In this document: piece after piece, positions 53,211 through 54,075 of the stretch | How positions within the stretch are numbered: position 1 is the stretch's first letter | Layout: each line of letters starts with the position of its first letter | From: Escherichia coli | GTDB taxonomy: Bacteria; Pseudomonadota; Gammaproteobacteria; Enterobacterales; Enterobacteriaceae | Length of the DNA: 64,000 bases | NCBI RefSeq assembly: GCF_009931435.1 | Contig: NZ_CP043414.1 | Reading direction: 5' to 3' (one strand) | Program-made: the position numbers and the translations under genes | The notes under the pieces: generated by a model | Seen by the model: the letters and a program-made list of their open reading frames with translations, nothing else | The model's database searches: none | What the model was told of the DNA's origin: nothing

Positions 53211-53609
53211 TTATTTTCCGTGGCCAAAATTTAGAATTCTCCCATCATTTTTGCCTATTTCTATAATAAAAACCCCACCAGCAATTTGTTCTGATTGAAT
53301 GGTGCCTTCAACAATCCAACTTATTGGTAATTCCTTGATTTTGTATGGTTTTTCTTCTTCTGCGGCATCATGCCCATAACGATTCTTAACATATATCTCA
53401 GCTAATTCCAATGCTATGGATTTATTTTTAACCAAATTTCTAACGGTATATTTCCCCTCACTTTCATACTTGCGCATTATTATAATATTATTACACTGCG
53501 CCCATGTGTTGTATGTAAAAACAAACAAAGATACAATTACACAGGTTCTGAATAATATTTTCTTACACGTTGCCATGTATTCTGCAAACATTAGGCAATC
53601 CTTTTCCAT
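53211..53609 (-). CDS. Small secreted protein, candidate orphan Rhs immunity protein
   Basis: About 120-132 aa with an N-terminal hydrophobic signal-like segment (KKILFRTCVIVSLFVFTYNTWAQC); C-terminal half is paralogous to the ORF at 55112-55339. True start is probably internal (53576 or 53591). Confidence 0.45.
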   Translation of the reverse strand: MEKDCLMFAEYMATCKKILFRTCVIVSLFVFTYNTWAQCNNIIIMRKYESEGKYTVRNLVKNKSIALELAEIYVKNRYGHDAAEEEKPYKIKELPISWIVEGTIQSEQIAGGVFIIEIGKNDGRILNFGHGK

Positions 53610-53928
53610 TTGTTATATCTTTCCCATGATTATCTATTGCTTTAAAATTTTCACCTATTGACCTTGAATTACTAAAATCACTTCCAGTGAAATCTGAGTT
53701 ATTCAGAATAGCATTCATCAGAGCCGCATTGCGAAAGACAGCATTTCTAGTTGATGTATGTTGAATCATTACATTTCTTAAATGAGTTTTTTCAAATTTC
53801 GCCCCATCAAGACAATAACCATTGAGGATGGCACGATGTAGATTCATCCCGCTAAAATCATATCCAGCAAGAGTGGTACTATCTATCTCAAGAAATTTAT
53901 TGGTTATTAAAAATGCGATTCTTATCAT
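53563..53928 (-). CDS. Pentapeptide-repeat protein
   Basis: About 121 aa from ATG preceded by GGAGG (MIRIAFLITNK...); at least 13 consecutive pentapeptide repeats with hydrophobic residue every fifth position (FSGMN LHRAI LNGYC LDGAK FEKTH LRNVM ... LMNAI LNNSD FTGSD FSNSR). Confidence 0.55.
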   Translation of the reverse strand: MIRIAFLITNKFLEIDSTTLAGYDFSGMNLHRAILNGYCLDGAKFEKTHLRNVMIQHTSTRNAVFRNAALMNAILNNSDFTGSDFSNSRSIGENFKAIDNHGKDITNGKGLPNVCRIHGNV

Positions 53929-53991
53929 CTGTTCCTCCAATCATCTAACTCCGGAAAATTTGAAAACCAGAACCTCGCTTAGGGGGTAGGA

Positions 53992-54075
53992 TTATTCTGC
54001 GTACCACGCTGTTGTCCTTTCCGTGCTGATAAGGGCCAGCAAGTTATCCGGTTTGCTTCGTTGAGTTCACCACGC
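53992..54075 (-). pseudogene. Rhs core-end remnant
   Basis: Minus-strand translation ...LLALISTERTTAWYAE* parallels RhsB ...[17 protein letters not shown]; nucleotide similarity to 56840-56880; ends in a stop before the DPxGL motif. Confidence 0.45.

Follow-up and report, generated by a model that had tools for sequence, protein, structure and literature searches.

A pentapeptide-repeat reading frame in an Escherichia coli Rhs orphan array as a probable deletion remnant of two toxin/immunity cassettes

The 121-codon reading frame and its parents

The stretch of DNA analysed here, referred to as the window, comprises 64,000 nucleotides (nt) of the Escherichia coli contig NZ_CP043414.1 (RefSeq assembly GCF_009931435.1), and the part of it under study is the nikR–rhs–yhhJ–rbbA region of this species. 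At positions 53563-53928, on the minus strand, there is an open reading frame (ORF) of 121 amino acids (aa) when counted from its ATG, or of 125 aa from an upstream TTG. In an original prediction, made from the letters of the DNA, this ORF had been described as a stand-alone pentapeptide-repeat gene with its own ribosome-binding site (RBS), located about 60 bp downstream of a decayed Rhs core fragment and overlapping the start of the next gene. The ORF, the core fragment and the overlap were all found as described. Moreover, homology to other genomes argues that the ORF is an in-frame deletion fusion, made up of codons 1-95 of a gene for a pentapeptide-repeat protein (PRP) and of the final 26 codons from an RhsB-type toxin tip with DUF4329. 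In the direction of transcription, the features of this segment are as follows:

53993..54158, minus strand: decayed Rhs core fragment with frameshifts and stops, approximately core codons 1128-1169; 83-85% identity to annotated Rhs core genes (three-frame translation; alignment to three Rhs genes)
53962..53992, minus strand: about 30 nt with no confident match, which separate the core fragment from the toxin tail; origin uncertain
53925..53961, minus strand: last ~11 codons (…FPELDDWRNR, then stop) of a deleted Rhs tip of the GNHR family, predicted to be like ParB and sulfiredoxin (Srx); blastn homology to L005 from 53961 and alignment to the intact locus L019
53644..53928, minus strand: PRP-derived segment, codons 1-95 of a 161-codon gene, predicted to form about four coils of a right-handed quadrilateral beta-helix; 95% nt identity to the intact E. 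coli copy
53644..53649, minus strand: deletion junction, where the parental homologies overlap by 6 nt (blastn end-points) at an imperfect G-AAA-TTT microhomology; protein …SIGENF/KAID…
53563..53643, minus strand: tail of the DUF4329 RhsB-type toxin tip, 26 codons and stop, which holds the start region of the downstream immunity gene; ~86% identity to the 3' end of K-12 rhsB
53211..53591/53609, minus strand: immunity gene of the YbbC/YhhH family (NTF2 fold), intact in the window and cognate to the DUF4329 RhsB tip (RefSeq annotation of L001); 92% identity to K-12-type yhhH

Tandem five-residue repeats of the A(D/N)LXX type were recognized in the 121-aa ORF by the hidden Markov models of the pentapeptide-repeat families (PF00805 / PF13599), with Pfam matches to Pentapeptide_4 (E 2.6e-7, residues 18-85) and Pentapeptide (E 1.1e-5). 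An AlphaFold (AF2) model, built on an alignment of relatives, reached a predicted local distance difference test (pLDDT) score of at least 82 over residues 1-90, with one strand for every five residues, and fell below 50 over residues 92-121 (29-47 in the tail). Furthermore, the top matches of this model in a Foldseek search of the PDB were all PRPs (Rfr, NleL, alr1298, NP275, HetL, MfpA, QnrB1, and AlbG). The right-handed quadrilateral beta-helix that structure prediction had been expected to confirm is thus predicted for residues 1-91 only, and by this model the N-terminal three quarters of the ORF are a real beta-helix and not a chance pattern. The view that the ORF consists almost entirely of pentapeptide repeats has to be narrowed accordingly, since only residues 1-95 are PRP-derived; residues 96-121 (KAIDNHGKDITNGKGLPNVCRIHGNV), for which disorder is predicted, correspond to the C-terminal end of a DUF4329 RhsB-type toxin.

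The assignment as a PRP/RhsB-tip fusion follows from the two homologies, which meet at the junction with an overlap of 6 nt. By blastn, window positions 53961-53644 showed 95% identity to the end of a toxin gene plus PRP codons 1-95, and positions 53649-53150 showed 92% identity to yhhH together with a K-12-type rhsB tail. At ~86%, the final 87 nt of the ORF and the start of the next gene matched the 3' end of K-12 rhsB and the yhhH start. A word-index protein search with the 121-aa ORF gave 5 matches, which included both parents. In parent P0005 the repeat protein goes on beyond the point where the window ORF switches (…SNSRSIGANF-EGAILTNSTFCNADV…; …SRSIGANF/EGAILTNSTF…), and parent P0004, a DUF4329 protein, ends in …TPSGNF-KAIDNHGKEITNGKGLPNVCRVHGNM, which is the tail of the window ORF. 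The swap after position 95 is visible in an alignment of 13 protein sequences. In this alignment frame, the window ORF covers positions 1-95 of 161, with the C-terminal 66 residues exchanged for the RhsB-tip tail, and it lacks the complete architecture of the 150-168-aa PRP family, which runs from MIRI-F and LHRA-L through a C-terminal W-P-x-G-F-D-P…G-A cap.

For both allele types of the ORF, the RefSeq annotation gives a pair of incomplete PRP pseudogene pieces, 249 nt and 87 nt long. These pieces, the match to K-12 rhsB/yhhH and the two parents lead to the conclusion that the ORF is not a complete gene, and what had been taken for a stand-alone gene would be 95 of 161 codons with a foreign tail. 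The original prediction had named, as the outcome that would speak against it, that homologous loci reveal the ORF to be a piece of a longer gene, and this is what was found for the 161-codon gene, albeit without a frameshift. A frameshifted but otherwise complete gene was also considered and rejected: the frame is not shifted, and the 3' 40% of the gene is physically absent and replaced.

Upstream of the ORF, the core fragment lies 64 nt before the ATG and ends in …LLALISTERTTAWYAE and a stop, about 60 codons short of the DPxGL boundary of the Rhs core. The 33 nt that precede the ATG encode …FPELDDWRNR and a stop in the window versus …FPELDDWGNR and a stop in the intact toxin, and the stop of this toxin remnant overlaps the PRP start as ATGA, an arrangement that has been preserved in the window. 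A second deletion would thus have taken the core end together with almost the entire tip. The predicted GGAGG does exist (53934-53938, with a 5-nt spacer to the ATG), but it is not the ORF's own: it derives from the W-G codons of the toxin, TGGGGG having mutated to TGGAGG, and it is a translational-coupling site inside the last codons of the deleted upstream toxin. A permissive local alignment of positions 53962-53992 to the toxin was too gappy to rely on, and this segment may be further decayed toxin sequence. At the opposite end, the chimera overlaps the yhhH-type start in the way that rhsB and yhhH do in K-12, where the overlap is 29 nt.

The intact gene and its Rhs partner in other genomes

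The search of E. coli genomes for an intact Rhs tip paired with the PRP gene, which had been proposed with the original prediction, was successful. Among 5426 complete E. coli genomes surveyed, 144 carry an intact pair composed of a 1403-aa RHS element core protein and, directly after it, the 161-aa PRP WP_000618048.1, the start of which overlaps the Rhs stop by 4 nt (ATGA). This pair sits at another rhs locus (ansP–yncG … pptA–nhoA). The chimera was found in 252 of the genomes; strain CFSAN061763 has both the intact pair and, at the rhsB locus, the chimera, and according to the place counts nearly all genomes with the intact pair also hold the chimera. Two draft assemblies show the intact-type locus with its Rhs gene and PRP apparently split by frameshifts (L004:3672-7795; the PRP as 69 aa + 91 aa in L004/L005). 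In the complete genome L019 both genes are intact, with one extra base in 1001 nt compared with the drafts, and the splits represent either assembly errors or independent decay.

Full-length orthologues of the PRP, with 161-168 aa and 57-68% identity, were identified in Enterobacter, Salmonella enterica subsp. salamae, and Intestinirhabdus alba. In Enterobacter the gene lies inside another orphan array, and in S. enterica subsp. salamae it lies behind an Rhs-DUF4329/Imm-NTF2 cassette and an IS630 insertion. The I. alba orthologue (L013:7001-7486; 161 aa, 57% identity), which was found on 17 contigs, has a methyltransferase gene on one side and azlCD on the other. No Rhs gene lies within 7 kb of it, and it is possible that it constitutes a genuine orphan immunity gene or a PRP with another role. 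The Enterobacter sp. array (L010:1-3207, L011:1-2046) adjoins lpdA-aceF-aceE and contains glycine-rich tip remnants (…VGINVAGYSVSNIIKGTAQTVNGVISTVIGS…) in repeated copies, with a gene for a small membrane protein after each one; these look like duplicated cassettes of a pore-forming toxin and its immunity protein.

For nine loci, we also looked at which gene follows the toxin domain. Eight of these have, as the next ORF, a gene for a PRP of 150-168 aa that starts at or overlaps the toxin stop (E. coli L019, L020, L021, L022, L023, L024, L028 from Roseateles, and L029), seven of these loci being distantly related to the E. coli one. Most of these PRPs have the N-terminal MI(R/T/S)I and LHRA-L motifs in common, and several share a C-terminal WP-GFDP…GA. 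At the ninth locus (L026:6182-6472), where the toxin homologue P0061 has an RHS carrier, the next gene encodes an unrelated protein of 96 aa (METRQEKLPTADERRAL…), and the toxin family may thus use at least two immunity types. Across the loci, identity drops to ~39% for the toxin and to 19-34% for the PRP, a co-divergence that is expected of cognate pairs.

The partner toxin tip

In the intact E. coli protein, the tip after DPLGL has 144 aa, with a core domain of ~100 residues. No match to this tip was found in Pfam, NCBIfam or PADLOC, and searches of PDB sequences with the tip and with its profile gave nothing meaningful; with Pfam applied to the tip and to every alignment member, the best that appeared was ddrB-ParB at E 0.35. 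When 1.84 billion representatives were searched exhaustively, 328 homologues of the toxin domain were recovered at E ≤ 1e-3. Among the 150 matches listed of these 328, every one reaches within a few residues of the C-terminus, in carriers of up to 2388 aa; the carriers examined are RHS, DUF6531-RHS or SpvB/TcdB-RHS proteins, and those with a name are Roseateles sp. RHS proteins.

The consensus of the domain reads …VS-P-V--YV--L--G--APPIKVDG--IVDGNHRY-AG…DWGNR, and residues T10, Q27, S31, G61, H63, and R64 are invariant in 31 diverse members. A GxxR nucleotide-binding motif is therefore present after the PPI-V strand, in the form GxHR (G61, H63, and R64). In an hhalign comparison, PPV-M…GNHR was placed on PPIDV…GCHR of a human sulfiredoxin sequence with E 0.0036, at a probability of only 9%. 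From these sequence features, the partner is likely to be a toxin of the ParB/Srx type with a GxxR motif, which probably binds nucleoside triphosphates (NTPs).

The orphan Rhs array

In Enterobacteriaceae, main rhs genes can be followed by C-terminal displacement arrays of orphan Rhs toxin/immunity cassettes; rhsB-yhhH and rhsA-yibA-yibJ of K-12 are examples. The chimera belongs to such an array. Between yhhJ and the ybfC-like gene that follows the main rhs gene there is a string of small minus-strand ORFs, which is a classic array of orphan Rhs cassettes, and the equivalent place in K-12 reads rhsB-yhhH-(yibA fragment)-yhhI. Further features of the array and its borders are:

56149-60348, minus strand: full-length (main) rhs gene (ORF list)
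55583-56152, minus strand: ybfC-like immunity gene, the next after the main rhs gene (ORF list)
55112-55339, minus strand: short NTF2-fold immunity protein of 75 aa, an orphan-array gene
54159..54560, minus strand: DUF6258-family orphan gene of 133 aa, itself the cassette before that of the chimera in the array (ORF list and RefSeq annotation)
52864..53121, minus strand: 85-aa ORF, itself the next decayed cassette, an N-terminal fragment of a yibA-like HEAT-repeat 'lyase' gene (NF007244, E 6e-20, residues 1-66 of 285)
48331-52190, plus strand: rbbA and yhhJ (ORF list)

The locus equivalent to that of the main rhs gene is annotated in three RefSeq genomes (L001, L002, L003). The first of these, from strain 2020CK-00188, is 99.8% identical to the window over a 1051-nt query, and its annotation lists, in order, an NTF2-fold immunity protein, a DUF6258 protein, the two PRP pseudogene pieces, a YbbC/YhhH-family protein, a lyase fragment, and an ISAs1 transposase. 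The yibA-like fragment is marked as incomplete by RefSeq. The window locus has the composition of an Rhs orphan cassette: a core fragment lies 5' of tip sequence and an immunity gene, and a full-length rhs gene precedes them. An intact tip coding sequence that could recombine onto the main gene was not found in it, as ~33 nt of one tip and 81 nt of another are left. Directly upstream of the DUF6258-family gene and of the 75-aa NTF2-fold gene there was likewise no intact toxin ORF of at least 40 aa, and further tip remnants may be present at 54561-55111 and 55340-55582. A scan of 53100-54700 for promoters and terminators was uninformative, with 10 promoter-like sites versus 6.8 ± 2.5 expected and no terminators.

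Additional variation was observed at the far end of the array. The ISAs1/H-repeat transposase gene (yhhI) is represented in the window merely by a 144-aa N-terminal fragment (52344-52778, minus strand), whereas the otherwise near-identical strain 2020CK-00188 has the full 1137-nt yhhI; by coordinate offsets, the window is ~761 bp shorter than that strain between yhhJ and the yibA fragment. With regard to the gene next to the chimera, the yhhH-like gene is intact in the window allele and frameshifted in the commoner allele, which is 94% identical (L002:8062-8438). The frameshifted copy shows that decay of the array is ongoing.

Discussion

We consider it highly probable that the 121-aa ORF is a chimeric remnant with no function or, at most, a residual one, and that it arose when two deletions struck the orphan-cassette array that follows the main rhs gene at the nikR-rhsB-yhhJ locus of E. 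coli. Ancestrally, the order would have been an Rhs core, a ParB/Srx-like tip, the 161-aa PRP immunity gene, a DUF4329 tip, and a yhhH-type immunity gene. One deletion would have cut away the end of the core and, save for 33 nt at the toxin 3' end with the coupling RBS, the first tip; the other, at a short microhomology, would have removed everything from PRP codons 96-161 through all but the last 26 codons of the DUF4329 tip, the fusion being in frame by chance. Having lost ~40% of the helix and the conserved C-terminal cap, the truncated PRP would no longer block the toxin, and the toxin tail would have been kept only because it holds the start region of the still-intact yhhH-type gene. Both junctions and both parents were located, the intact pair was found at another place in E. 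coli, and modelling recovered a PRP fold for the N-terminal part. Because both alleles have the same junction, the chimera arose once. The ratio of nonsynonymous to synonymous substitution rates (dN/dS) is ~0.21 for the PRP part against the intact gene, which reflects constraint before the fusion, and ~1.9 between the two chimera alleles.

Several observations weigh against a mere remnant. The latter ratio is based on 8 substitutions only (7 nonsynonymous and 1 synonymous). Both diverged alleles, like most deposited copies (clusters P0001 and P0002, 252 member sequences), have kept the 121-aa frame open, and a good RBS still precedes the chimera. In addition, the best-conserved PRP motifs (MIRI-F, LHRA-L, LRN, and AALMNA) lie within the retained N-terminal 75 residues, and residual binding of the toxin by the chimera is therefore possible. 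From the same facts one could build a functional orphan immunity gene, as had been proposed originally, in which the truncated PRP folds, binds the ParB/Srx-like Rhs toxin of ~3% of E. coli and protects its host: the open frame and the RBS persist in two alleles, the family motifs of the N-terminal part are still there, the N-terminal 90 residues are confidently predicted as a beta-helix, and the toxin circulates within the species. Nevertheless, 66 of the 161 residues are lost, including the conserved C-terminal cap, in favour of a disordered foreign tail; seven of the eight differences between the alleles are nonsynonymous; RefSeq calls a pseudogene; and the chimera would be redundant wherever the intact pair is present, nearly all pair-bearing genomes also carrying the chimera. 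We regard this possibility as very unlikely, even if the window chimera may still give partial protection. What stands of the proposal is that the PRP part comes from a gene in immunity position; this copy is not an intact orphan gene. The suggestion of a degenerate toxin tip, made as its alternative, is literally true of the last 26 residues, with the remaining 95 being PRP-derived.

Retention of the frame could also have a reason other than the peptide, which would be irrelevant if translation through the old RhsB tail served to keep the overlapping yhhH-type gene coupled. Indeed, the right-hand end-point of the deletion spares exactly the 87 nt that overlap the yhhH-type start, with the 29-nt overlap geometry of K-12, the two parts are joined in frame, and the window allele of the yhhH-type gene is intact. 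On the other hand, the other allele type has its yhhH-like gene frameshifted and the chimera frame still open, and an in-frame fusion has a 1-in-3 chance; such a leader function seems unlikely to us, and it is compatible with, not opposed to, the explanation as a remnant. Far less credible is a DNA mimic of the Qnr/McbG/MfpA kind that shields gyrase or another DNA enzyme from a poison, a role that had also been raised for this ORF and that we consider extremely improbable. Its common ground with these proteins is the pentapeptide-repeat fold alone, with MfpA, QnrB1, and AlbG among the structural matches. All Qnr/MfpA NCBIfam models score 15-37 bits versus cut-offs of 240-500, both for the window ORF (Qnr 20.6/240, QnrB 22.6/460, and MfpA 19.0/360) and for the intact 161-aa PRP (Qnr 32.3, QnrB 33.5, and MfpA 37.2), and a Qnr/McbG-type function was rejected on the ground that the curated cut-offs are missed tenfold. 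The PRP family, with 150-168 aa, is shorter than the Qnr/MfpA profiles of 183-221 positions, and its conserved genomic partner is the predicted ParB/Srx-type Rhs tip, not a gyrase poison or a microcin cluster. Compared with Qnr, MfpA, McbG, and AlbG, the family is thus alike in its right-handed quadrilateral beta-helix and differs in length and genomic partner, with no link to gyrase.

As a deletion remnant, the window feature has much in common with known orphan Rhs arrays: the locus is the same, with the order nikR-rhs-…-yhhH-yibA fragment-ISAs1-yhhJ, it contains a core fragment, tip remnants and immunity genes that overlap toxin stops, and it decays through deletion and frameshift. It differs in that two adjacent cassettes are fused in frame, and the resulting ORF has the look of a small gene that is complete. 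PMC7043789 deals with orphan Rhs modules of Salmonella. In itself, the window feature is an ordinary remnant of an Rhs array, which RefSeq already marks as pseudogene pieces; what it teaches is that a deletion fusion, if it is in frame and inherits an RBS, can look like a neat small gene.

The more interesting by-product is the pairing of toxin and PRP at the level of the family. The genomic neighbourhoods support the descent of the PRP segment from a gene in the immunity position of an Rhs toxin, and we take this context as strong evidence for the PRP as an immunity protein. We infer that the intact PRP would be the cognate immunity protein, binding and blocking its ParB/Srx-like toxin, and that the putative block would probably be at or near the GxHR nucleotide pocket, by analogy with the immunity to ToxB. 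ToxB, a toxin of CdiA, is an ATPase with the ParB-CTPase fold in which the GxxR arginine is required for ATP hydrolysis; iToxB is encoded directly downstream, and its product contacts the nucleotide pocket (bioRxiv 10.64898/2026.05.05.722872). It is the sole experimentally studied ParB-fold polymorphic toxin that was found in the literature search. Both ToxB and the present tip would be polymorphic-toxin C-terminal domains of the ParB/Srx-type fold, which for the present tip is a prediction from sequence. They differ in their carriers, CdiA versus the Rhs/TcdB type, the two families being set side by side by description. Moreover, the text of the ToxB preprint does not contain the word 'pentapeptide' (bioRxiv 10.64898/2026.05.05.722872), whereas a PRP beta-helix gene lies downstream of the present domain in 8/9 loci.

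ParB-fold tips named Tox-ParB and Tox-ParBL1 were predicted in 2012 on RHS and other carriers, delivered by the type VI secretion system among others (Zhang et al. 2012, PMC3482391). The immunity families given there for Tox-ParB are Imm20, Imm27, Imm-SuFu, Imm-SUKH, and Imm44, and in its accessible portion the text does not use the word 'pentapeptide' (PMC3482391). Again by description, Tox-ParB and the present tip are alike in a ParB fold on RHS carriers, as far as it is predicted, and differ in their immunity families. The nearest published case is the Rhs C-terminal toxin Tse6 of Stenotrophomonas rhizophila, whose immunity protein Tsi6a resembles a PRP-annotated antitoxin, DYE20_11255, that counteracts the type VII secretion system toxin DYE20_11250 of M. 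chelonae (bioRxiv 10.64898/2026.07.13.738213). Orthologues of the Tse6-type toxin occur on many carrier types, and the toxin is provisionally regarded as a nuclease or as ADP-ribosyltransferase (ART)-like (bioRxiv 10.64898/2026.07.13.738213). Compared by description, Tse6/Tsi6a and the present pair are alike in an Rhs tip with PRP-like immunity and unlike in the toxin, which is labelled nuclease or ART-like in the former and appears ParB/Srx-like in the latter.

No description of a pairing of the present toxin domain with a PRP was found in the literature searched. We give evenly balanced weight to the proposal that the intact relatives form an undescribed pair, in which a ParB/Srx-like tip of ~100 aa with a GxHR motif, on Rhs/TcdB carriers from E. 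coli to Roseateles, would be matched by a PRP beta-helix immunity protein of 150-168 aa. If confirmed, this pair would add a new toxin family and a new immunity fold class to the catalogue of polymorphic toxins, and would provide a concrete, testable function for one group of the enigmatic bacterial PRPs. In that case, PRPs would gain a second general role, the inhibition of NTP-binding ParB-fold toxins, beside the protection of topoisomerases.

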